Of a DNA stretch of 64,000 bases, positions 25,741 to 45,652 are shown one piece after another. The translations under genes were made by a program, and so were the position numbers. Source of the DNA: a virus (Duplodnaviria; Heunggongvirae; Uroviricota; Caudoviricetes); the IMG/VR virus record IMGVR_UViG_3300025387_000012, positions 64,001 through 128,000 of that record; one strand, 5' to 3'. Position 1 is the stretch's first letter. Every line of letters starts with the position of its first letter. The notes beneath the pieces were generated by a model. That model saw only the letters and a program-made list of their open reading frames with translations, was not told the origin of the DNA and made no database searches.

Positions 25741-27221
25741 TCGTATGGGGCGTCAACGCAAACAACCATGACGCATCCATCAGCGTCGTCGACGCCGAGT
25801 CAAAGGAAATCCTGTTCGCCGGTCATGCCGAGCGGTATAGCAGGATCAAGAACGACTGTGACCTGAACACGGGCCTCATTAAGGACGCTCTCCTTTGGGG
25901 CTATCCAGAAAAGGTCGCGTGGTTTGAAAATCCATGGGGTCGCAAGCTTCGCTACCTCAAGAGCGGACAGTACGATCTTCTAACCGAAAAGTCTCCTCGC
26001 GCCTACATGCGTCAGTACGGCATCAACGCTCCGATGTCCTACTCAAATCACCACGCGTCTCATGCTGCAGGCGGCTACTACACGAGCGGCTTCTCTGATG
26101 CGGCGATCGTTGTCATCGATGCGATTGGTGAAACGACCACGGCTTCTATTTGGGAAGGTCGAGGAGATCAGCTCATTAGAAAGTGGGAGCTGAAGTACCC
26201 ACAATCTGTCGGCCTGTTCTACAGCGCGATTACCGATCTCGTGGGGCTGAAGCCAAATGAAGAGGAGTACATCCTTATGGGAATGGCAGCGTATGGCAAC
26301 TCCGAGCAGGCAGCTGACATCGCGAAGTACATCTTCAGCACCTACCACAGAGCGCATACTGGAATCTGGCAGAGCTACAACTTCCACCAGGGAGTTCGAC
26401 ACGACGATGTTCTTAACGCGTATACTTCTTCAGATGAAGGCAAGTATACGCTAGCACTCGCAGCTCAACGCGTCACTGAGTTCTTTATTCGTCAAATAAT
26501 GATGAAGGCTGCATCGCTTGTAAACTCTAACAACCTAGTCTACTCAGGTGGTGTTGCTCTGAACTGTGTTGCGAACTCTCATGTGAAGCACCAGTTCAAG
26601 AACGTCTGGATCATGCCAAATCCAGGTGATGCGGGTAACTCCCTTGGCGCCGCGGCGAAGTTTGTTGGCTCGCAGCTACAGTGGGAAGGTCCCTTCCTTG
26701 GTCACAACATCATCCGCGAGTTCAACACCGATCAGATCGTTGAGCACCTTTCAACGGTCGGGCTTTGCGGCGTTGCCCATGGACGCGCTGAGTTTGGACC
26801 TCGTGCTCTCGGCAATCGATCCCTGCTGGCCGACCCACGCAGACCAGACATGAAGGACCGTGTCAACCAGATTAAGCATCGCCAGATGTTCCGTCCTTTC
26901 GCTCCGGCTGTTCTCGAAGAGCACGCGTCAAAGTGCTTCGTGTTCCCAATGGGAACCGATTCAGCACCTTACATGCAGTACGTGGTGGACGTCATCTCTC
27001 CGAAGAAGTACCCCGCAATCTCGCACTTCGACAACACTGCTCGGGTCCAGACTGTTGGGGCTGAGGCTCCCATCCTCCGTGAAATCCTGGAGAAGTGGCA
27101 CGCCAAGACCGGATGTCCTATGCTGCTGAACACGTCGCTCAACATCAAGGGTGAGCCTCTAGTCAACACGGTCGAGGATGCCATTCGCTGGGAAAAGAAA
27201 TACGACGTCCGCGTTTTCTGA
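25737..27221 (+). CDS. carbamoyltransferase (NodU/CmcH/TobZ family)
   Basis: NHDASI, HHASHAAGGYYTSGF, IDAIGE, EEYILMGMAAYG, SGGVALNCVAN, PGDAGNSLG, GRAEFGPRALGNRS, RPFAP, LLNTSLN. Confidence 0.93.
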   Translation: MIVWGVNANNHDASISVVDAESKEILFAGHAERYSRIKNDCDLNTGLIKDALLWGYPEKVAWFENPWGRKLRYLKSGQYDLLTEKSPRAYMRQYGINAPMSYSNHHASHAAGGYYTSGFSDAAIVVIDAIGETTTASIWEGRGDQLIRKWELKYPQSVGLFYSAITDLVGLKPNEEEYILMGMAAYGNSEQAADIAKYIFSTYHRAHTGIWQSYNFHQGVRHDDVLNAYTSSDEGKYTLALAAQRVTEFFIRQIMMKAASLVNSNNLVYSGGVALNCVANSHVKHQFKNVWIMPNPGDAGNSLGAAAKFVGSQLQWEGPFLGHNIIREFNTDQIVEHLSTVGLCGVAHGRAEFGPRALGNRSLLADPRRPDMKDRVNQIKHRQMFRPFAPAVLEEHASKCFVFPMGTDSAPYMQYVVDVISPKKYPAISHFDNTARVQTVGAEAPILREILEKWHAKTGCPMLLNTSLNIKGEPLVNTVEDAIRWEKKYDVRVF

Positions 27222-27255
27222 GTTTACTTCTGCCGCAGAAGTGATAGGATGGTCC

Positions 27256-27570
27256 ATGTCGTACAAGATGTTCATAGACGATGAAAGGTTCCCGGCTACC
27301 GATGGATGGGTGATCGTTCGCTCCTCAGCTGAAGCCATCGCGCTTATCGAACGAGACGGATTCCCAGAGTTCATCAGCTTCGACCATGATCTGGGAGGAG
27401 ATGACACGTCGATGCGGCTGATCAAATACATGATCAACGCGGTGATGGACGATGAGTCGCTTCCCTTCCCACGCAAATATGACGTTCACAGTCAGAATCC
27501 AGTGGGGGCAGCAAACATACGAGGCCTCATGGATTGGTTTATCGAGCACCTCGGCAAGGAGGAAACATGA
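27256..27570 (+). CDS. cyclic-phosphate-processing receiver-like domain protein
   Basis: MFIDDERFP...VRSSAEAI...PEFISFDHDLG...VHSQNPVG matches this standalone receiver-fold family, which is associated with RNA repair genes. Confidence 0.75.
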   Translation: MSYKMFIDDERFPATDGWVIVRSSAEAIALIERDGFPEFISFDHDLGGDDTSMRLIKYMINAVMDDESLPFPRKYDVHSQNPVGAANIRGLMDWFIEHLGKEET

Positions 27571-28104: not shown

Positions 28105-28513
28105 TATGAACGCCTCCACGATCCCGGCCAAAATCCGGGTCGTGAACTATTGCGCCGAGCTTGAAATCAAGCGGCAAGAGGATTACATCGCGAAGAAGGT
28201 TCGAAAGTGCGCTGAGGACCAGATCAAGTTCCGCGAGGAGCAGAACCAAAAGTTCTTCGTGAAGCTGTTCCGAAAGCAGAAGCCGGTTCCGACGGTTGAT
28301 CAGCGGGTTGAAGAACTTATCAAAGAGTTCGAGGACAACACTCTTCACTGGGCCTCAAGCGCATACGGCGCTTTGAGCCGTCGGGAGTGCCGGTGGTATG
28401 AGCGTCTTCAGCAGCTCGCAAATCTGCCGGTTGTCGGCGACAATAACACGATGCAGCTTTCTCTGGAAGATGCACACCTCATCGAATACAACGAAAACGC
28501 ACTGAAAGTTTAA
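28094..28513 (+). CDS. hypothetical protein
   Basis: 139 aa in operon. Confidence 0.65.
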   Translation: MSDNMNASTIPAKIRVVNYCAELEIKRQEDYIAKKVRKCAEDQIKFREEQNQKFFVKLFRKQKPVPTVDQRVEELIKEFEDNTLHWASSAYGALSRRECRWYERLQQLANLPVVGDNNTMQLSLEDAHLIEYNENALKV

Positions 28514-28514
28514 C

Positions 28515-29108
28515 ATGCTCGACATCAAACACATCGACGAGTTCCGCTCGCGCGTAGCCCACAAGGAGGAGATGCGCGAGATGGACATTGGCGAGGGATG
28601 CACGTCCTTCTGCTACATGATCGCTGCTGAGGGAACCTTCGATGACGTTTGGTCTCGAGAGTGCCGCGGGATCGTGTTCGACAACGAGACCGGTTCGGTT
28701 GTGGGCCGCCCCCTCCACAAGTTCTTCAACGTGAACGAGCGCGAGAGCACGCGAGTTGAAAACCTGGATTGGTCGAAGGTCACGCGCGTCATGGACAAGC
28801 GCGATGGCTGTTGTGACGCGGATACCGTGTTGAACACCGCGGACGGACCAATGTCTATCAAGGAGGCGTGTGACTCCAAATATTCAGGATTAGTCCTGGG
28901 ATGGAATCATGTCTCAAATGAAGTTCAATGGACCCCTATCCTGGATCACAAGGTCCAACCGAACAACGATGATTGGTATGAAATTGAGATGGAGAATAGG
29001 AAGAAGATCAAACTGACGGGAAACCACCTGGTGTGGTGTATCAACCGGGCAGAATATGTTCGAGTTGATCAACTTACTACAGAGGATGAAGTTCAACAAC
29101 TGTACTGA
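28515..29108 (+). CDS. rnlA: T4 Rnl1-type RNA ligase N-extein (98 aa) fused to split-intein N-fragment (99 aa)
   Basis: RECRGIVFD...RPLHKFFNVNE and motif I MDKRDG, followed at once by intein block A CCDADTVL and block B LTGNHLVW, then a stop. Confidence 0.9.
   Translation: MLDIKHIDEFRSRVAHKEEMREMDIGEGCTSFCYMIAAEGTFDDVWSRECRGIVFDNETGSVVGRPLHKFFNVNERESTRVENLDWSKVTRVMDKRDGCCDADTVLNTADGPMSIKEACDSKYSGLVLGWNHVSNEVQWTPILDHKVQPNNDDWYEIEMENRKKIKLTGNHLVWCINRAEYVRVDQLTTEDEVQQLY
28809..29105 (+). mobile_element. split intein N-fragment (IntN) of RNA ligase
   Basis: Starts with Cys1 directly after KRDG, has the TxxH motif, 99 aa, no terminal HN. Confidence 0.9.
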
Positions 29109-30045
29109 GTTGTAATAGGATAAACTCTTCAAGTTCAACATCTGTCTTGGAGTTTATATCATTCTCCCAGATTGATAGGTATTGATACCCAGATTTGATT
29201 GCGATATTCTGTTTCTTTAGATCTTTTTTCCAAAGATCCTTTGCGATGATCTGAGGTGTCTTACCTGGAAAGTTTAATACGCTTTCTTCTGTGTAAAACT
29301 TAGGATTCGCGTGCCAGAAATCCCCGTGTACTTCAAGAACAACATTGTTTATCAAAAAGTCGTATTGGACCCCCTTGATGAAAAATGAATATTGAAATGG
29401 GATTCCAAGGGAAGTCAAACAGTTCGCGACGCGAGTTTCAAGTTTGTTGATTTTGAAGTAATACGGTAACGTTCCATTGGCGATCATCGTGTTATATTTC
29501 TTTTGGTGCAAAGCGTATAGTTGTTCATCGGTAAGATTTTCATAAGGATTTATCCTTTTCTTACCATAACGTTGAATGTGAGTGTTGGTTATTTTATCTT
29601 GGATATCTTTGAGTTGAAATACATTTACGGCACCATAACGTTCCTTTAGTGTTTTTTGGCGAGTAACATATCCAACAGATCCTTTTGATAAAGTATTAGT
29701 GGTTCCGTATTTTATCAAACACGTTTCTCTATATTTCTTTTTGACTGAGCTGGTATTATTCGCGGCTAAAAGGTCTCGTTTTGGGATACTGTGCATATCA
29801 AGTACAAAGTACAGCACCTTAATACCAACATCAAACACGTTGTAAAAATCAACGGATGATAGTTCGTCTTCAATGTACAGTTTATTGATCAAATCTTTAT
29901 CTGACAAATCAATCTTTGAATGATTATTGACCAACACCTGTAGTTTAAACTCATCTTTGGGACGATCCTTACCGCAAGTTTTGTAGTGTGGTAGCTTTGA
30001 ACTAGCCCCGCAGATCGGGCATATTAGTGGTTTATACGGTTTCAT
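29077..30045 (-). CDS. Vsr-like / PD-(D/E)XK homing endonuclease between the intein halves (antisense)
   Basis: N-terminal CPIC...C, TxxxKYG-type repeats, C-terminal YDFLI...LEVHGDFWHANP...YLSIWE. AT-rich (21/60 GC at 29161-29220). Confidence 0.85.
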   Translation of the reverse strand: MKPYKPLICPICGASSKLPHYKTCGKDRPKDEFKLQVLVNNHSKIDLSDKDLINKLYIEDELSSVDFYNVFDVGIKVLYFVLDMHSIPKRDLLAANNTSSVKKKYRETCLIKYGTTNTLSKGSVGYVTRQKTLKERYGAVNVFQLKDIQDKITNTHIQRYGKKRINPYENLTDEQLYALHQKKYNTMIANGTLPYYFKINKLETRVANCLTSLGIPFQYSFFIKGVQYDFLINNVVLEVHGDFWHANPKFYTEESVLNFPGKTPQIIAKDLWKKDLKKQNIAIKSGYQYLSIWENDINSKTDVELEEFILLQLSTVVELHPL

Positions 30046-30049
30046 ACTG

Positions 30050-30087
30050 TGTACTTTCTAGATCGACTGTGATATAATCTATTTATA
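30050..30087. promoter_or_regulatory. overlapping opposed promoters (+ strand sigma70-like; - strand late box)
   Basis: TGTACT-N17-TATAAT at 30050-30078 on +; TATAAATA at 30080-30087 on -. Confidence 0.6.
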
Positions 30088-30129
30088 GACAAATGCGTCC
30101 GCGTCACACTTTTCCATCATCGGTGCCCT

Positions 30130-30231
30130 ATGAAAATTCTGAACATCTCCAAGGTTGAAAATCACTCAGAACGGTACGACATTCAGACTGGGACTGAGAA
30201 CTTTTTTGCGAACGACATTCTTGTCCATAAC
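30130..30231 (+). mobile_element. split intein C-fragment (IntC) of RNA ligase
   Basis: Block F YDI, block G FFANDILVHN, +1 Ser at 30232. Confidence 0.9.
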
Positions 30232-31068
30232 TCGATGATCCACACGGTGATCACCAAGAATGGCATTCGCCTGAAGTCGAAGAAGACGTTCACGTCTGAG
30301 GTTGCGATTGCAGCCGAGAAGTGGATGCACGAGCAGGAAAGCAAGAACGTTCTGCGTCTCGTGGAACATCTCGCTACGCTGGACTGCACGGCCATCTTCG
30401 AATGGACGGCGCCAGACGCGCGCATCGTGCTTCACTATCCCGAGCCGGAGCTTCAGCTTCTGCACGTTCGAGACAATGTGACCGGTGAGTACCACACGTA
30501 TGACGACGTGTTCTATCTTGGAATGCGCTTCAACGTGAAGGTAGTTGACCCTGTCACGGGCTTCTGGGACGGTGAGAAGCTCGACATCGCCAAGATGTTG
30601 GAGACGGCTCAGACGATCGAGGGCATCGAGGGCTGGGTAATCCAGTTCGAGAATGGTGAGATGGTCAAGCTCAAGACCCAATGGTACTTGAAGCGCCACC
30701 GCGCCATGACGTTCCTTCGCGAGCGCGACATCGCCGTACTGGTTCTGGAAGAAGGTCTTGACGATCTGAAGGCTATGCTCGTGGGTGAAGGCGTGAACAT
30801 CGATGAGGTTCTCCAAATCGAAGAGCGCGTCCTCCACATTCTCCGTGAGCTCGCTCTCAACGTAGATGTGATCTTCAACGAGGATGGGCATCTTGAGAGA
30901 AAGGACTTCGCGATCAAGCACAAGGCCTCGCCGCACTTCGGTCTTCTGATGGCTCGCTATCAGGGTCGTGAACCGTCGTTTAAGGAGTTCTTCGAACGTA
31001 CCATTCTGCGTGAGCAGTTCTCTCTTCGCCAGCTCGTGCTGGTTCCCTCTGTCGCTGAAGGTGATTGA
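30130..31068 (+). CDS. rnlA: split-intein C-fragment (34 aa) fused to RNA ligase C-extein
   Basis: RYDIQTGTENFFANDILVHN/S, then SMIHT...AIFEW...IVLHY...RDNVTGEY...EGIEGWVI...VKLKTQWY (Rnl1 motifs). The splice product restores KRDG-S. Confidence 0.9.
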   Translation: MKILNISKVENHSERYDIQTGTENFFANDILVHNSMIHTVITKNGIRLKSKKTFTSEVAIAAEKWMHEQESKNVLRLVEHLATLDCTAIFEWTAPDARIVLHYPEPELQLLHVRDNVTGEYHTYDDVFYLGMRFNVKVVDPVTGFWDGEKLDIAKMLETAQTIEGIEGWVIQFENGEMVKLKTQWYLKRHRAMTFLRERDIAVLVLEEGLDDLKAMLVGEGVNIDEVLQIEERVLHILRELALNVDVIFNEDGHLERKDFAIKHKASPHFGLLMARYQGREPSFKEFFERTILREQFSLRQLVLVPSVAEGD

Positions 31069-31334
31069 TGCAGTACATCCTGACCCAAGAAGAGTACGAC
31101 GCTCTTCGAAATGATGTGAAGGTCCAGTCACTGACCCAGACCAGGAAGATGCAGAAGCTCTGCACTAAGATTGCAGATACGATGCCTGTTCGCTGGACAT
31201 GGGGTCCGGGTAAGGACACCCCTACCCCGTGGGGATGTAGGCTAACCCTTGAAAAAGAAGGGGACGAGTGGTACTGCGACGAATGCCCGGTCCAGGAAAT
31301 CTGCCCTAGCAATCGTAAATCATACTCGCAATGA
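31068..31334 (+). CDS. small Cys-containing hypothetical protein
   Basis: TGATG-coupled start. WGC...WYCDECPVQEICP suggests metal binding. Confidence 0.7.
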   Translation: MQYILTQEEYDALRNDVKVQSLTQTRKMQKLCTKIADTMPVRWTWGPGKDTPTPWGCRLTLEKEGDEWYCDECPVQEICPSNRKSYSQ

Positions 31335-31971: not shown

Positions 31972-32184
31972 ATGCGAAACATACGGCAGTATCCCATCAC
32001 CCGTGAAGAGGTCTGCGAGGTCCTGCAGAAAATCCCAATGGACAATCCGCCTGGCACTCCTCCCGGAGAAATGAAGATTGGTGGTCTAAACGATCTGATC
32101 CGCCAGGGAATAATTATTGCGTGCACTGAAGAAGCGGTCATGAAGCGCATTCTAAAGCACGCCAATCTGGAGAACGATGAATGA
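31972..32184 (+). CDS. small hypothetical protein
   Basis: 70 aa, abuts both neighbours. Confidence 0.6.
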   Translation: MRNIRQYPITREEVCEVLQKIPMDNPPGTPPGEMKIGGLNDLIRQGIIIACTEEAVMKRILKHANLENDE

Positions 32185-33323
32185 GAAAGTTGGTAACAGT
32201 TCGCCGCGTAGCGGCAGTTAACCCTATCGAGGGTGCAGACGCCATTGAGGTAGCGACCGTAGATGGCTGGAAGCTGGTCGTCAAGAAGAACGAGTTCGCC
32301 GCTGGCGATCCTTGCGTCTACTTTGAGATCGACAGCTTCCTGCCTGAGTCGGATCCTCGCTATGCCTTCCTGATGAAGTCTGGTGTTCGCGAGTTCGAGG
32401 GTCAAAGAGGTCATAAGCTTCGCACGATCCGTCTCCGCGGTCAAATCAGCCAGGGTCTGGCGCTGCGCCTTGATGCGTTCCCTGAAATCCTTCAGAGCGT
32501 TGGTGTCAACCTGCTTGTTGATCCTGATGTTGTCAAGGACATGAAGGCAATCCATGGACTGGATGTGATGGTCGAAATGCATCGCGCAGTCGTGTTTGAC
32601 CCTGAGGTCCAAGAGCGACTTGATCAGGTTGATCTCGCCGCGCTCCTCGGTATTAAGAAGTGGGAGCCTGCTCTTCCCGCATCTCTCGCTGGTAAGGTTC
32701 GTGGACTGTTCCCAAGCTTCATTCGTAAGACAGATCAGGAGCGCTGTCAGAACCTGGTCGAGGACATCTTCTCAGATGTTGACGCTCGCTACGAGGTCAC
32801 CGTGAAGCTGGACGGCACGAGCTTCACAGCATACTTCCGTGATGGCGACATCGGCGTTTGCAGCCGCAACCTCGAGCTGAAGCTCGGCGATGAGAACGCG
32901 GACAACACGCTGGTGAAAACCTTCGAAGAGGCTCGCCTTGGCACTCATCTGCCGCTCATCGGCAACATTGCTATTCAAGGCGAGCTGATGGGTGAAGGCA
33001 TCCAGGGAAACCGTGAGGCCATCAAGGGCCACCAACTGTTCATCTTCGATGCACAGAACCTCGACACTGGCAAGTACCTCACCCCAGCGGAGCGGATGGA
33101 ACTAATGACCAAGCTTCTGGGTGCGGTCAACCACGTTCCTATTCTCCATGCAGACGTCAGCCTTCGTGAGCTCGGCATCACCAACGTTGATGAGCTGCTT
33201 GCCTTCGCTGAAGGCCCAAGCCTGACACACCCTGTTCGTGAGGGTGTTGTGTTCAAGCGTGAAGACGGAAAGTTCAGCTTCAAGGCAATTTCTAACAAAT
33301 TTTTGGAGAAAGAAAAAGATTAA
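32181..33323 (+). CDS. RNA ligase, DRB0094 (DraRnl/Rnl5-like) family with N-terminal OB module
   Basis: RKLVTVRRV...IEGADAIEVATVDGW...VYFEIDSFLP, FPSFIRKTDQERCQN, KLDGTS, CSRNLEL, IQGELMG, REGVVFK, SFKAISNKFL. Confidence 0.9.
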   Translation: MRKLVTVRRVAAVNPIEGADAIEVATVDGWKLVVKKNEFAAGDPCVYFEIDSFLPESDPRYAFLMKSGVREFEGQRGHKLRTIRLRGQISQGLALRLDAFPEILQSVGVNLLVDPDVVKDMKAIHGLDVMVEMHRAVVFDPEVQERLDQVDLAALLGIKKWEPALPASLAGKVRGLFPSFIRKTDQERCQNLVEDIFSDVDARYEVTVKLDGTSFTAYFRDGDIGVCSRNLELKLGDENADNTLVKTFEEARLGTHLPLIGNIAIQGELMGEGIQGNREAIKGHQLFIFDAQNLDTGKYLTPAERMELMTKLLGAVNHVPILHADVSLRELGITNVDELLAFAEGPSLTHPVREGVVFKREDGKFSFKAISNKFLEKEKD

Positions 33324-41528: not shown

Positions 41529-43751
41529 ATGACGACAGATCAAGACAGAAACTACGTGGCGGCGTGGGTTGATTATGCTGCGGACAAGATTGTGGTTCTC
41601 GAAAGGGACTCGCAGGGCTCGTTGTTCCGCAAGCGCTACAACCCACCCTACTACTTCTATGTCCCTGATGAGGAAGGTACCTACACCTCGATCTTCGGGG
41701 ACAAGCTCGTGCGCGCTGAGTTTGACAGTCGCGAGCAGTATGACTATGCGCAGCGTCACTTTCCTATCAAGTTTGAAAGCGACATCCCGCCTCTAAAGCG
41801 GGTGCTGATGGACAACTACTATGGGCGTCCAGCTCCCCCAGTAAACTTCGCCCTCCTCGACATCGAGGTCGACTACGCCCAAAAGATCGGCTTCGCTGGT
41901 CCAACCAATCCATATGCGCCAATCAATGGCGTCACGGTCTACCAATCGTGGACCAAGAAGTACAAGACCGCGGTGGTTCCTCCTAAAGGATGGACTGGAA
42001 CTTCTGAAGACCTCGTCAACAAGATTAACGAGCTAGTGAAGTTCAAGGGTAACACCCCAGAGGTTCACATCTGCCGCGATGAGCTAGAGCTTCTCGTGCT
42101 CATGCTGGAATGGATCCAGGAAGCGGACATCATCTCCGGCTGGAACTCCGAGTTCTTCGACATCCCTTATATTTGTGAACGTCTCCTTCTTGCCGGTGGT
42201 GAGCCAATGCTCCGCAAGATGGAGCACGTCGGTGTTAAGCCTCCTAAGAAAGAAATGGTGAACCGCTTTGGTTCAGAAGAACCAATCTACAAGTTCACTG
42301 GCCGATGCCACCTTGACTACATGCGTCTCTTCCAGAAGTTTACCTTTGAAGGTCGCGTGTCCTACTCACTTGGCAACATCCTTCAAGAAGAGGTTGGCGT
42401 TGGTAAGCTTGAGTACGATGGAACACTTGAGCAGCTTTACCACAACGACTTTCCTACCTTCGTCGCGTACAACTTCCGAGACGTTGAAGGTCTGGTTCAG
42501 CTAGACGAAAAGTTCAGGTTCATCGCGCTCGCGAACCAGATGGCCCATGAAAACACCGTGGGCTTTGAGGCGGTGCTTGGCACCGTGGCCTACGTGGAAA
42601 CGGGCATCACGAACCACGCGCACTACAAGCTCAACAAGATCGTTCATGACAAGACCATCGGCCACAATGAGAAGGTCGAGGGTGCCATCGTTATGACCCC
42701 GAAGATCGGTCTGCACAAGTGGATCGGTTCGGTTGACATTAACTCTCTGTACCCCAACACCATCCGATCCCTGAATATCTCACCAGAGATGATCGTAGGT
42801 CAGTTCACTTCGAACGAAGAAGCATGGGCTGAAATCCGAAAGGGCAGCGATGTTCGTCTCACTCTGATCCTTGAGAGCGGTGAGCAGCACGTTGCCGAAG
42901 CCAAGGACTGGAAGGCGGTCCTCAAGGAACAGAAATGGGCCATCTCCGCATATGGCACCGTCTTTGACCAAGGCAAGGGCAAGGGTGTCGTTGCTGACAT
43001 CCTCGGGTTCTGGTACGCAGAGCGCAAGCGTCTTCAAGCTGAAAAGAAGAAGTACGCCAAGCTTGCCAAGGATGAAAAAGATCCGATCAAGAAGGCCGAG
43101 TACAAGATTCAGGAAGATCACTACGATCTGCTGCAGCTGACCAAGAAAATCTCGATGAACTCTCTGTATGGCGCCCTCCTCAATGTCGCCTTCCGTTTCG
43201 GCGATGAGCGCATGGGTGCTTCGGTTACCGCAACTGGACGTGCAATCACGACGCACATGGTCGAGACGATTGACGAGCTCCTAACTGGAACCCGCAATCC
43301 TCTCATCAAGACCACGACGACGGACAAGGATGGCAAGCTAGTCCATGAATACCATTCTATCTCTGACGCGATCATCTATGGGGATACAGACTCAGTTGAC
43401 CCGCTAACTGTTGTGAGTACTTCAGTTGGAAATCTTACAGTTCAGGAGCTTTTCGATTCTTTACCAATTAAACATCAAACAAATACAGGTAAAGAATTTG
43501 CTGAAGCAGATGGTATTGGATTCTGTGCCCTTGGATTTAAGGGTGAAACACCTAAACTGCTAAAAGTAAAATCAGTGTATCGACATAAGACACCAAAGCG
43601 CCGCTTTAAGATAGAGCTGGAGAATGGTAAATGGGTAATAATTACGGAAGACCATTCTCTTATGATCAAGCGCGATGGAAAACTGTTAGAAGTAAAGCCG
43701 GTGGACATAAATAGAGATACCGATGTCTGTATCTCCGTACTGGAACTTTAA
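41529..43751 (+). CDS. polB: family B DNA polymerase N-extein (621 aa) fused to split-intein N-fragment (119 aa)
   Basis: Exo I LDIEVD, Exo II GWNSEFFDIPY, Exo III YNFRDV, motif A SVDINSLYPN, motif B KISMNSLYG, motif C YGDTD, then intein SVDPLT and ITEDHSL. Confidence 0.95.
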   Translation: MTTDQDRNYVAAWVDYAADKIVVLERDSQGSLFRKRYNPPYYFYVPDEEGTYTSIFGDKLVRAEFDSREQYDYAQRHFPIKFESDIPPLKRVLMDNYYGRPAPPVNFALLDIEVDYAQKIGFAGPTNPYAPINGVTVYQSWTKKYKTAVVPPKGWTGTSEDLVNKINELVKFKGNTPEVHICRDELELLVLMLEWIQEADIISGWNSEFFDIPYICERLLLAGGEPMLRKMEHVGVKPPKKEMVNRFGSEEPIYKFTGRCHLDYMRLFQKFTFEGRVSYSLGNILQEEVGVGKLEYDGTLEQLYHNDFPTFVAYNFRDVEGLVQLDEKFRFIALANQMAHENTVGFEAVLGTVAYVETGITNHAHYKLNKIVHDKTIGHNEKVEGAIVMTPKIGLHKWIGSVDINSLYPNTIRSLNISPEMIVGQFTSNEEAWAEIRKGSDVRLTLILESGEQHVAEAKDWKAVLKEQKWAISAYGTVFDQGKGKGVVADILGFWYAERKRLQAEKKKYAKLAKDEKDPIKKAEYKIQEDHYDLLQLTKKISMNSLYGALLNVAFRFGDERMGASVTATGRAITTHMVETIDELLTGTRNPLIKTTTTDKDGKLVHEYHSISDAIIYGDTDSVDPLTVVSTSVGNLTVQELFDSLPIKHQTNTGKEFAEADGIGFCALGFKGETPKLLKVKSVYRHKTPKRRFKIELENGKWVIITEDHSLMIKRDGKLLEVKPVDINRDTDVCISVLEL
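43392..43748 (+). mobile_element. split intein N-fragment of PolB (Ser1)
   Basis: Starts with Ser after YGDTD, has the TxDH block B, ends at a stop with no HN. Confidence 0.9.
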
Positions 43752-44723
43752 ATGATTACCTGTCAAGAGTGTGGGAAGGAAGTTAATGTAATTACTCATA
43801 CGCACTTGAAATTTTCATGCTCTGGAAATCTTTCGACTTTGAAAAGTTATAAAGAAAAGTGGCCAGAAGCAGAAACTCACAGCGCGGAGGTCAGATCTTC
43901 TTGCTCTGTCACGCTTGAGCGGATGATAGAAAATTACGGTCAGGAAGAAGGGACACTCCGCTATAAGGAATATTGTGAAAAACTTTCAAGAAAGAATAGC
44001 TTAGAAAGCTTTCTAGCTAAGGGAAAATCCGAGGAAGATTGGAAAAAGTATAATAGTTCTAGAGCTGTCACCCTTGAGAACCTTATCGCAAAGTATGGTA
44101 CTGAAAAAGGAACCCAGGCATTTAACTCCTACCGGGAAAAACAGAGACGCGCAGGAAATTCGTTAGATTGGTTTGTGGAAAAATATGGGCTAGAAGAAGG
44201 TCATTCTAAATACGCCCAGGTATGTAAGCAGAAGGGGATAACACTTGAAAATCTAACTAGAAAATATGGTGAAGCCGAGGGCTTTAAGCGCTACCATGCA
44301 TTCCTTGACAAGACTAAAGGTAATTACGTTTCACTCTCTGGAAGTAGTTTTATTCGTGATTTGGTTTCAGTTCTTCCAAGCGATGTTATTTTTCACGATG
44401 GGGTTTTTTCTAAAGAGTTCTGTATTTACGATGAACGGGCATTTTTGTTTGATTTTGTCATAACTTATCCTTGGAAGCTGATAGTCGAATTCAACGGGGA
44501 CTTTTGGCATGCTAATCCGGCGCATTATAGCGCTGATCATATTGTAAATCTCCGTGGAGGTGCAGTAAAAGCATCCGCAATCTGGGAAAAAGACGCTAAA
44601 AAGCGGGAAGCTGCAGAAAAAAGAGGCTTTAAAGTTTTTGTGGTGTGGGAAAATGAGTATATTAAATCTAGAGAAGCTACGATTGCTAAGGTGATGGAAT
44701 GGATTTCTCAGAACAGCGAATAG
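43752..44723 (+). CDS. Vsr-like / PD-(D/E)XK homing endonuclease between the PolB intein halves (sense)
   Basis: N-terminal CQECG zinc-finger-like motif, five repeats (TL/SL...KYG.EEG), FDFVI...VEFNGDFWHANP...VVWE. AT-rich. Confidence 0.85.
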   Translation: MITCQECGKEVNVITHTHLKFSCSGNLSTLKSYKEKWPEAETHSAEVRSSCSVTLERMIENYGQEEGTLRYKEYCEKLSRKNSLESFLAKGKSEEDWKKYNSSRAVTLENLIAKYGTEKGTQAFNSYREKQRRAGNSLDWFVEKYGLEEGHSKYAQVCKQKGITLENLTRKYGEAEGFKRYHAFLDKTKGNYVSLSGSSFIRDLVSVLPSDVIFHDGVFSKEFCIYDERAFLFDFVITYPWKLIVEFNGDFWHANPAHYSADHIVNLRGGAVKASAIWEKDAKKREAAEKRGFKVFVVWENEYIKSREATIAKVMEWISQNSE

Positions 44724-44827
44724 TCTCAATTGAGGAAATTCCTCCTACAGATGGATACGTCTATGATTTGATCATGGAAGATTCTTCAGCACCTTATTTT
44801 TTCGCAAATGGCATACTAGCACATAAC
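44699..44827 (+). mobile_element. split intein C-fragment of PolB
   Basis: Block F YDL, block G FFANGILAHN, +1 Ser at 44828. Confidence 0.9.
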
Positions 44828-45652
44828 TCTTGCTACTATAAGTGTCTAGGGGCAACCAACAAGGAAGAGGCGATCGAGATTGCCGACCTTGCTGCAGAAG
44901 GCGTCAACAACTCGTTCCCATCCTTCATGCGAGAGGCCTTCAACTGTCAACCAGAGTTTGACACGCTGATCGCGGCTGGACGAGAAGTCGTGGGTGTTCG
45001 CGGTTTGTTCCAAGCCAAAAAGAAGTACATGATCAAGGTCGTCGATCTTGAAGGCTTTGCTGTTGACAAGATGAAGACGCAAGGATCCGAGATCAAGAAG
45101 GCTGATACGCCAAAGATCATTCAGACCTTCCTCAAGGAGACCGTCGACATGATCCTTGATGGTGTCGAATATGAGGAGGTCGCGACCTACGTCAATGAAC
45201 AGCGCAAGCACATCCTCAAGAAGAAAGAAAACGTGTTCCTACTGGGGGTTGCTAAGCAGGTAAATAACCTTGACAAGTATGCAGCCGAGTACGCCAATCC
45301 AGGTACCATCCGTACCGAGAAAGGTGGGACACTGACCATCCCAGGTCATGCTCGTGCAGCATGCAACTACAACTTCCTACTGGACATCTACGACAAGGGT
45401 GCCAAGACCATTCGATCGGGTGACAAGGTGCTGGTCTTCTATGTGAAGCCAAACCAGTTCAAGTTCGATGCAGTCGCGTTCCCTGCCGAGTTCACCCGCT
45501 TCCCTAAGTGGTTCGAGGAAAACTTCTCGGTAGATGTCAAGCAGACAGAAGCAAAAATGTTTGACAACAAGCTCAAGGGCATCTTCTCCGCACTCGGTAA
45601 AGACATCCCATCACCGCAGTCGGTGCTCACAAATAATATTCTTTCCTTCTAA
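44699..45652 (+). CDS. polB: split-intein C-fragment (43 aa) fused to PolB C-extein
   Basis: YVYDLIM...YFFANGILAHN/S, then SCYY (restoring YGDTDSCYY), AKKKY, KTQGSEIKKADTP. Confidence 0.93.
   Translation: MDFSEQRIVSIEEIPPTDGYVYDLIMEDSSAPYFFANGILAHNSCYYKCLGATNKEEAIEIADLAAEGVNNSFPSFMREAFNCQPEFDTLIAAGREVVGVRGLFQAKKKYMIKVVDLEGFAVDKMKTQGSEIKKADTPKIIQTFLKETVDMILDGVEYEEVATYVNEQRKHILKKKENVFLLGVAKQVNNLDKYAAEYANPGTIRTEKGGTLTIPGHARAACNYNFLLDIYDKGAKTIRSGDKVLVFYVKPNQFKFDAVAFPAEFTRFPKWFEENFSVDVKQTEAKMFDNKLKGIFSALGKDIPSPQSVLTNNILSF

Follow-up and report, generated by a model that had tools for sequence, protein, structure and literature searches.

The window analyzed here is a stretch of 64,000 nucleotides from a virus of the Caudoviricetes (positions 64,001 to 128,000 of IMG/VR record IMGVR_UViG_3300025387_000012), and coordinates given without a contig name refer to it. 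In this uncultured large phage, a gene for an Rnl1-type RNA ligase is split in two by a mobile split-intein cassette. Three open reading frames (ORFs) make up the locus: two on the plus strand, which encode the two parts of the ligase together with the N- and C-terminal halves of an intein (IntN and IntC), and one between them on the minus strand. An ORF check found all three in the window, with the following coordinates and contents:

28515-29108, plus strand: N ORF, 197 aa, reading ...VMDKRDG-CCDADTVL...LTGNH...QQLY and then a stop
28515-28808, plus strand: N-extein, Rnl1 residues 1-98, ending ...VMDKRDG, with motif I Lys95, Asp97, and Gly98
28809-29108, plus strand: IntN, 99 codons and the stop, with Cys1, block A CCDADT, and block B LTGNH
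29077-30045, minus strand: endonuclease ORF, 322 aa, a predicted Vsr-like/EDxHD free-standing homing endonuclease gene (HEG) with a DUF7487 N-terminal region and a Vsr-like nuclease domain
30046-30129, no strand: divergent control region, 84 bp separating the start codons of the endonuclease and IntC ORFs
30130-31068, plus strand: C ORF, 312 aa, starting with MKILNISKVENHSERYDIQTGTENFFANDILVHN followed directly by SMIHTV
30130-30231, plus strand: IntC, 34 codons, MKIL...YDIQTGTENFFANDILVHN, with penultimate His and terminal Asn
30232-31068, plus strand: C-extein, Rnl1 residues 99-376, with Ser+1 (SMIHTV...), motifs III FEW, IV EGWV, and V KLK, and T4_Rnl1_C

The boundaries of the cassette were fixed by comparison with an allele that lacks it. 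A protein search with the C-half identified P0002, an uninterrupted homolog of 376 aa that reads MDKRDG-SMIHTV across the junction and is 88% identical to the window over the extein (87% for the N-extein versus residues 1-98). P0002 is carried on contigs L001 and L002, both of which are syntenic with the window: its small upstream ORFs recur there, as do a cREC gene and, downstream, an RNA ligase of the PHA02142 type. Alignment of the DNA to the intein-less L001 placed the cassette (1,423 bp, low GC) at 28809-30231, between Gly98 and Ser99 of the ligase and three residues past the motif I lysine, Lys95. The order within it is IntN (99 aa), the antisense endonuclease gene, the 84-bp control region, and IntC (34 aa). 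Cys1 is residue 99 of the N ORF (TGT, 28809-28811), the terminal Asn is encoded by AAC at 30229-30231, and Ser+1 by TCG at 30232-30234. The joined exteins (98 + 278) give 376 aa, the same length as P0002. The ligase had a GC content of approximately 0.56, compared with 0.44 for the intein parts and 0.37 for the antisense gene, and the cassette was lower in GC than its host gene in every locus compared.

Protein family profiles were divided cleanly at the same point. Positions 1-55 of the Pfam profile RNA_lig_T4_1 (PF09511) matched the N ORF and positions 56-227 the C ORF, PHROG 562 (RNA ligase) was divided at the same break (31-107 versus 107-352), and the Rnl1-specific C-terminal domain was present in the C ORF (PF20819, 28.0 bits against a cut-off of 27, E = 2.9e-6). 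The Rnl1 nucleotidyltransferase motifs KxDGS, FE(F/W), EG, and KxK were all found across the two halves. P0002 itself aligned to T4 Rnl1 (2C5U, E = 3e-36) with motifs I, III, IV, and V conserved, and the break falls between the G and the S of the T4 motif I, KEDGS, equivalent to G102 and S103 of T4 Rnl1. In other words, the motif I lysine is in the N-half and motifs III (FE-), IV (EG), and V (K-K) are all in the C-half. Mutagenesis in the Shuman laboratory reportedly found these motif residues to be essential in T4 Rnl1. With the residue that becomes adenylated separated in this way from the other three motifs, neither half alone would be expected to work. T4 RNA ligase 1 (RnlA; 2C5U, 5TT6) belongs to the same family and has the same four motifs and the C-terminal domain; however, T4 rnlA is one uninterrupted gene, whereas the enzyme in the window would require assembly after translation. 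An earlier note, made from the DNA of the window without database searches, had described a ligase broken in motif I by a split intein of 99 + 34 aa with Cys1 and Ser+1. The clean cut in the profiles and the allele that reads straight through the junction bear out the break, and the anatomy is fixed by the L001 alignment and by residues that are invariant in seven loci.

The inserted halves can be assigned from their residues to a class 1 intein (HINT domain) that is naturally split. In seven diverged loci, C1 (the N-terminal nucleophile, Cys99 of the N ORF), D3, T6, LTGNH (T70-G-N-H73), and approximately 20 other positions of IntN were invariant. All seven C-halves contained ...ILVHN followed by S, a homologous IntC opening the six others. 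A homology search with the halves, which the earlier note had suggested, found the NrdJ-1 split intein to be closest: it was the nearest solved relative of IntN (8UBS, E = 4.9e-6, over residues 18-95), and its C-terminus matched IntC (E = 4.2e-7), which matched gp41-1 more weakly. NrdJ-1 (8UBS/9OMB) and gp41-1 (6QAZ) share with the intein in the window Cys1 and a short IntC of similar length ending in ...FFANDILVH; they differ from it, with its halves of 99 and 34 aa, in host protein and insertion site. The splicing-active wild-type forms of both use Ser+1, and both rank with the fastest split inteins available to protein engineers. The nearest relatives of IntN in GenBank phage records (approximately 33%) were DNA helicase inteins of Salmonella phage S16-like phages and Proteus phage PM2, the helicase gene being labeled uvsW in two records.

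The 322-aa ORF between the halves had been called a Vsr-like nuclease on the opposite strand, and both parts of that call held. A direct phmmer search of the PDB gave only Vsr, at E of approximately 0.6, so the fold had to be assigned by way of structure. The AlphaFold (AF2) model had a predicted local distance difference test score (pLDDT) of 88.8, and its top Foldseek match was the catalytic domain of I-Bth0305I (3R3P, probability 1.0, template modeling (TM) score 0.70-0.75), followed by Escherichia coli Vsr (1VSR/1CW0, TM 0.53-0.57). In an alignment of 32 homologs, E238, G241, D242, W244, and H245 were invariant and D229 and D275 nearly so, the catalytic residues aligned with those of Vsr over residues 201-297, and an N-terminal Cys/Cys/His element was common to the homologs. 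PHROG homing endonuclease families also matched the ORF, and its N-terminal region scored 26.1 bits against Pfam DUF7487 (cut-off 27). The EDxHD family and its composite catalytic motif (Asp, Glu, Asp, His, Asp) were defined with I-Bth0305I (PMC3239194). By modeled fold and catalytic residues, the protein fits the EDxHD/Vsr-like homing endonucleases, and it would be expected to have nuclease activity. Like I-Bth0305I (PMC3239194; 3R3P), it has a C-terminal nuclease of the same fold with composite acidic/His catalytic residues, preceded by an N-terminal DNA-binding region. In I-Bth0305I that region has annotated NUMOD repeats, whereas here it consists of the Cys/His element and helical repeats; furthermore, I-Bth0305I sits in a group I intron of recA, whereas the endonuclease in the window is free-standing inside a split intein.

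At their 3' ends, the endonuclease gene and the IntN ORF overlap tail to tail by 32 nt, as they also do in L004, L006, and L007. Two hairpins lie across this overlap on the plus strand (29040-29140, -25.8 kcal/mol, z -2.6, with 3 of 200 shuffles as stable). They are not followed by a T-run, and they may be a two-way transcript-end or stability element.

Vsr-like endonucleases also occur in group I introns, I-Bth0305I being an example (PMC3239194), which would be compatible with a group I or group II intron that carries an endonuclease gene and is removed at the RNA level. This was judged to be hardly credible. No Rfam intron or other relevant RNA family was found in 28300-31300 at E up to 1, the scan giving only a sub-threshold snoRNA match. 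Moreover, canonical intein blocks are encoded at both ends of the insert, in the reading frame of the exteins, and the C-half has its own start codon, which was conserved in every locus.

The architecture is not confined to the window. The N-half (Rnl1-N plus IntN, 192-202 aa) was found in at least 17 protein clusters from metagenomes, and any source that names these clusters calls them "hypothetical protein". No GenBank phage record had this fractured ligase, the matches beyond residue 98 being low-identity read-through alignments. The chance of a mere coincidental pattern is excluded, because the syntenic uninterrupted allele reads through the junction and many independent contigs show the same arrangement. 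An assembly or chimera artefact, as the source of the stop codon and the insert, has in its favor that the record is a metagenome-derived virus contig (129 kb, estimated to be approximately 35% complete). The probability of such an artefact is negligible, since identical N-half, endonuclease, and C-half proteins were found on two to three contigs, and the same layout was recovered from independent samples in JGI, ENA, and Logan, diverged to 50-80% identity. The contigs with identical proteins are up to 285 kb long, and the phage is therefore probably a jumbo phage.

The loci compared fell into the following states:

L001, L002: empty site
Window, L004/L016/L017: intact antisense endonuclease
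L006, L009: diverged subgroup B, with an antisense endonuclease of full or near-full length (N-extein frameshifted in L006, endonuclease C-terminally truncated in L009)
L003: frameshifted endonuclease
L007, L008: endonuclease remnant with internal deletion
L005: no endonuclease, the halves being 26 nt apart

The endonuclease was on the minus strand in the window, L003, L004/L016, L006, and L009, and the remnant in L007 was likewise antisense. In a maximum-likelihood tree, five antisense endonucleases formed one clade (support 91/95), separate from the same-strand endonucleases of related ligase inteins described below.

Comparison of substitution rates indicated purifying selection on ligase, intein, and endonuclease alike. 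The ratio of nonsynonymous to synonymous rates (dN/dS) between the window and L004 was 0.106 (intein) and 0.108 (endonuclease); for the joined exteins of the window, compared with the intact allele L001, it was 0.089. Among the window, L003, L004, and L007, the intein was 68-83% identical over all pairs (74-83% to that of the window) and full-length endonucleases were 68-80% identical, whereas the exteins were only 49-59% identical; set beside the 74-83% of the intein, the ranges were 69-80% for the HEG and 54-59% for the exteins. Synonymous divergence (dS) was approximately 1 in the cassette; in the exteins it was saturated (window versus L003 and L004) or 1.65 (window versus L007). The greater conservation of the cassette relative to its host gene indicates that it has spread horizontally, and it gives indirect support only to site-specific cleavage of the cassette-free allele by the endonuclease. 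By these sequence distances, the cassette is younger than the genes that carry it, as expected for homing between diverged phages.

Analysis of the 84 bp between the endonuclease and IntC start codons identified two overlapping promoter-like sequences that face in opposite directions. On the plus strand, facing the IntC ORF, the motif at 30070-30088 holds a putative extended -10 element (TGATATAAT; TG-n-TATAAT). The motif was kept upstream of IntC in the antisense-clade loci, including L005, which has no HEG, and was degenerate in L007; it occurred as a single copy in the window and was not found in the same-strand relatives. On the minus strand, TATAAATA at 30087-30080, the T4 late-promoter consensus, overlaps the extended -10 and lies 34 nt upstream of the endonuclease ATG. 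There were six copies of TATAAATA in the window (17246, 17290, 30080, 45679, 50295, and 55369), as opposed to 0.41 expected. Because each copy precedes a same-strand ORF by 15-75 nt, their positions suggest that this phage uses T4-type late promoters. We infer that two promoters come with the cassette, one serving the orphaned C-half and a late one serving the endonuclease. The IntC leader was unusually unstructured, being less folded than all 200 shuffles (z +2.3).

Two other candidate features of the cassette were rejected. A perfect complementarity of 11 nt between the first IntN codons (28812-28822) and the IntC leader (30098-30108) was conserved in no other locus and was treated as chance. 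An inverted repeat of 15 nt that flanks the cassette (28785-28799/30220-30234) follows from the likeness between the VMDK codons and the LVHN codons read antisense, and only 6-13 of its 15 positions matched in other loci.

Several results weigh against a ligase that is restored by splicing. The Pfam Intein_splicing profile gave only 21 and 14 bits for the two halves, under the cut-off of 35.8. The IntC ATG is not preceded by a Shine-Dalgarno sequence, and the proposed promoter was missed by a generic sigma-70 promoter and terminator scan, which gave about as many calls as shuffled sequence; the conserved motif went uncalled because its -35 is poor, and it was assessed instead by its conservation across loci. 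There were signs of decay in relatives: the N-extein of L006 (L006:2415-2689) changes frame near 2549, and the endonuclease of L003 (L003:1260-2218) changes frame near its C-terminal motif. These frame changes may represent decay or possibly sequencing errors. In favor of a split intein, the predicted complex of IntN and IntC (N-ORF residues 89-197 with C-ORF residues 1-60) scored 0.67 versus 0.01 for the best control; 51 of 78 solved complexes reached the mark used for this score, as did 2 of 108 mismatched pairs. Because split-intein complexes have already been solved, however, the score may reflect resemblance to known structures and is no proof of binding. Runs of this prediction agreed in at least 89% of contacts, with a partner pLDDT of approximately 60, and the predicted interface included G98-C99, the TGNH block, IntC residues 1-33, and Ser35.

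The only serious rival explanation is that the ligase was killed by the invasion, its halves being inert or held together non-covalently by the intein halves, so that the phage relies on a second ligase. Such a ligase is present: an intact RNA ligase of the PHA02142-OB/PF09414 type is encoded at 32181-33323, 1.1 kb downstream of the fractured gene. Together with a cREC cyclic-phosphate-processing domain gene upstream (27178-27570), it makes up an RNA-repair neighborhood, and both genes also neighbor the locus in L001, L002, and other loci. Because of this second ligase, the claim of the earlier note that tRNA-repair capacity depends on trans-splicing is too strong. The missing Shine-Dalgarno sequence and the decay in relatives also fit a dead gene, and fragmented phage enzymes that come together without splicing are known (PMC3045599). 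Against this, the exteins have a dN/dS of 0.089 relative to the intact allele and retain every ligase motif, the dN/dS of the intein is approximately 0.1, and the fractured form persists in its 17 or more clusters. Furthermore, the catalytic intein residues are invariant although the exteins are only 45-60% identical between loci. Loss of the ligase was therefore considered improbable, and the conserved intein and ligase residues point to function that is likely to be by protein trans-splicing.

To determine how widely the intein family is distributed, viral contigs were scanned with the IntN alignment. Relatives were found at 34-51% identity, all inserted after a K-x-x-G motif. One (L018) was a related intein in a distant Rnl1, and eight loci (L019-L026) had related split inteins in RNA ligases of the PHA02142-OB/PF09414 type, immediately following motif I (K-x-x-G); the intact second ligase in the window belongs to this family. 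Compared with the halves in the window, those of L019-L026 were 34-42% (IntN) and 47-62% (IntC) identical (for example, L019:2901-5513 and L023:3021-4555). In L018-L026 the endonuclease was on the same strand, a remnant, or absent, and IntC came directly after the endonuclease and had a Shine-Dalgarno sequence. Judged by these alignments, one intein family occupies a homologous site in two RNA ligase families.

The L007 contig contained two fractured RNA ligases. The first (L007:3121-4936) is an Rnl1 whose antisense endonuclease remnant has residues 1-61 joined to residues 287-322. The second (L007:6600-8936) is a PHA02142-type ligase that is split by a different intein with a same-strand endonuclease. 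Its break corresponds to a point near residue 188 in the window's second ligase, approximately 22 residues before motif I.

The window itself also contained a second fractured gene, for a family B DNA polymerase (41529-45652), made up as follows:

41529-43751: polymerase N-part and IntN
43752-44723: same-strand endonuclease of the same family, 323 aa, 38% identical to the endonuclease of the ligase cassette over the nuclease core
44699-45652: IntC and polymerase C-part

One phage, in other words, carries both the canonical and the antisense layouts.

Fractured genes of the canonical kind were described by Dassa et al. 2009 (PMC2677866), who reported 26-27 fractured loci, all with three ORFs on one strand, in genes for gp41, IMPDH, DnaE, NrdA, NrdJ, DNA ligase, terminase, and one unknown gene; the NrdJ-1 and gp41-1 inteins both come from that set. 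The locus in the window resembles these in having two ORFs in the original order, split-intein halves at the break, and a free-standing endonuclease between them. Also shared are the intein clade, the type of endonuclease (GIY-YIG or Vsr-like in PMC2677866), control elements that travel with the cassette, and variants without a HEG (gp41-7 there, L005 here). It differs in three respects. The host is an ATP-dependent RNA ligase, Rnl1, which is not on that list; the endonuclease is antisense rather than on the same strand, and is conserved in that orientation across a clade; and it is divergent from IntC across 84 bp with a conserved promoter-like motif. The earlier note had drawn the same comparison, and correctly, as PMC2677866 lists no RNA ligase and states that the ORFs are on the same strand. 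A search of the literature library used here found no paper on an intein in Rnl1 or other RNA ligases and nothing relevant on an opposite-strand endonuclease in a split intein. The suggestion that this is a new Rnl1 split intein agrees with that search; the intein is not a one-off, however, as the 17 or more protein clusters show a recurrent and spreading family. The kind of selfish element is known; its host enzyme and its orientation are new.

Taken together, these data make it highly probable that the locus is a fractured Rnl1 with an antisense-endonuclease split-intein cassette, whose two polypeptides trans-splice to a 376-aa ligase. The first polypeptide would be Rnl1(1-98)-IntN and the second IntC-Rnl1(99-376), the latter probably transcribed from the promoter carried by the cassette. 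The intein halves would associate into a class 1 HINT fold and trans-splice by means of Cys1, TGNH, HN, and Ser+1, yielding a ligase of 376 aa, the length of the intein-less allele and with the same junction. The T4-type late TATAAATA box probably drives the endonuclease, which would presumably cut intein-less alleles in co-infecting phages, so that the cassette spreads by homing. Because an antisense endonuclease can never fuse in frame, the intein would be locked in its split state.

A further possibility, which we regard as rather unlikely, is that the antisense layout is a selected architecture with a two-way promoter module, and that a selfish element has been turned into a regulator of RNA-repair capacity. 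If so, the extended -10 would drive the IntC-ligase half and the overlapping late TATAAATA box the endonuclease. The ligase halves would come from different transcription units and their assembly would be gated in time. Transcription of the endonuclease, being late, would cross the 3' end of the IntN message in the antisense direction, and the intein would be permanently barred from re-fusing with the endonuclease.

The series of states found in one gene (empty, intact HEG, frameshifted, remnant, and HEG-less) occurs naturally and lends itself to work on the homing cycle. NrdJ-1 and gp41-1 gain a new relative in this intein (99 + 34 aa, Cys1/Ser+1), which may be useful as an orthogonal tool, and the split intein of the DNA polymerase in the same genome provides a natural test of orthogonality. 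In 2009, fractured genes were seen as a stage on the way to endonuclease-containing inteins, a view with which the antisense layout is at odds; instead, a free-standing endonuclease can apparently sit backwards inside an intein, forcing and locking the split state. These findings would extend fractured genes from enzymes of DNA synthesis to an enzyme of RNA repair, and because the break is inside the adenylation motif, the activity of this ligase would be strictly conditional on protein splicing.

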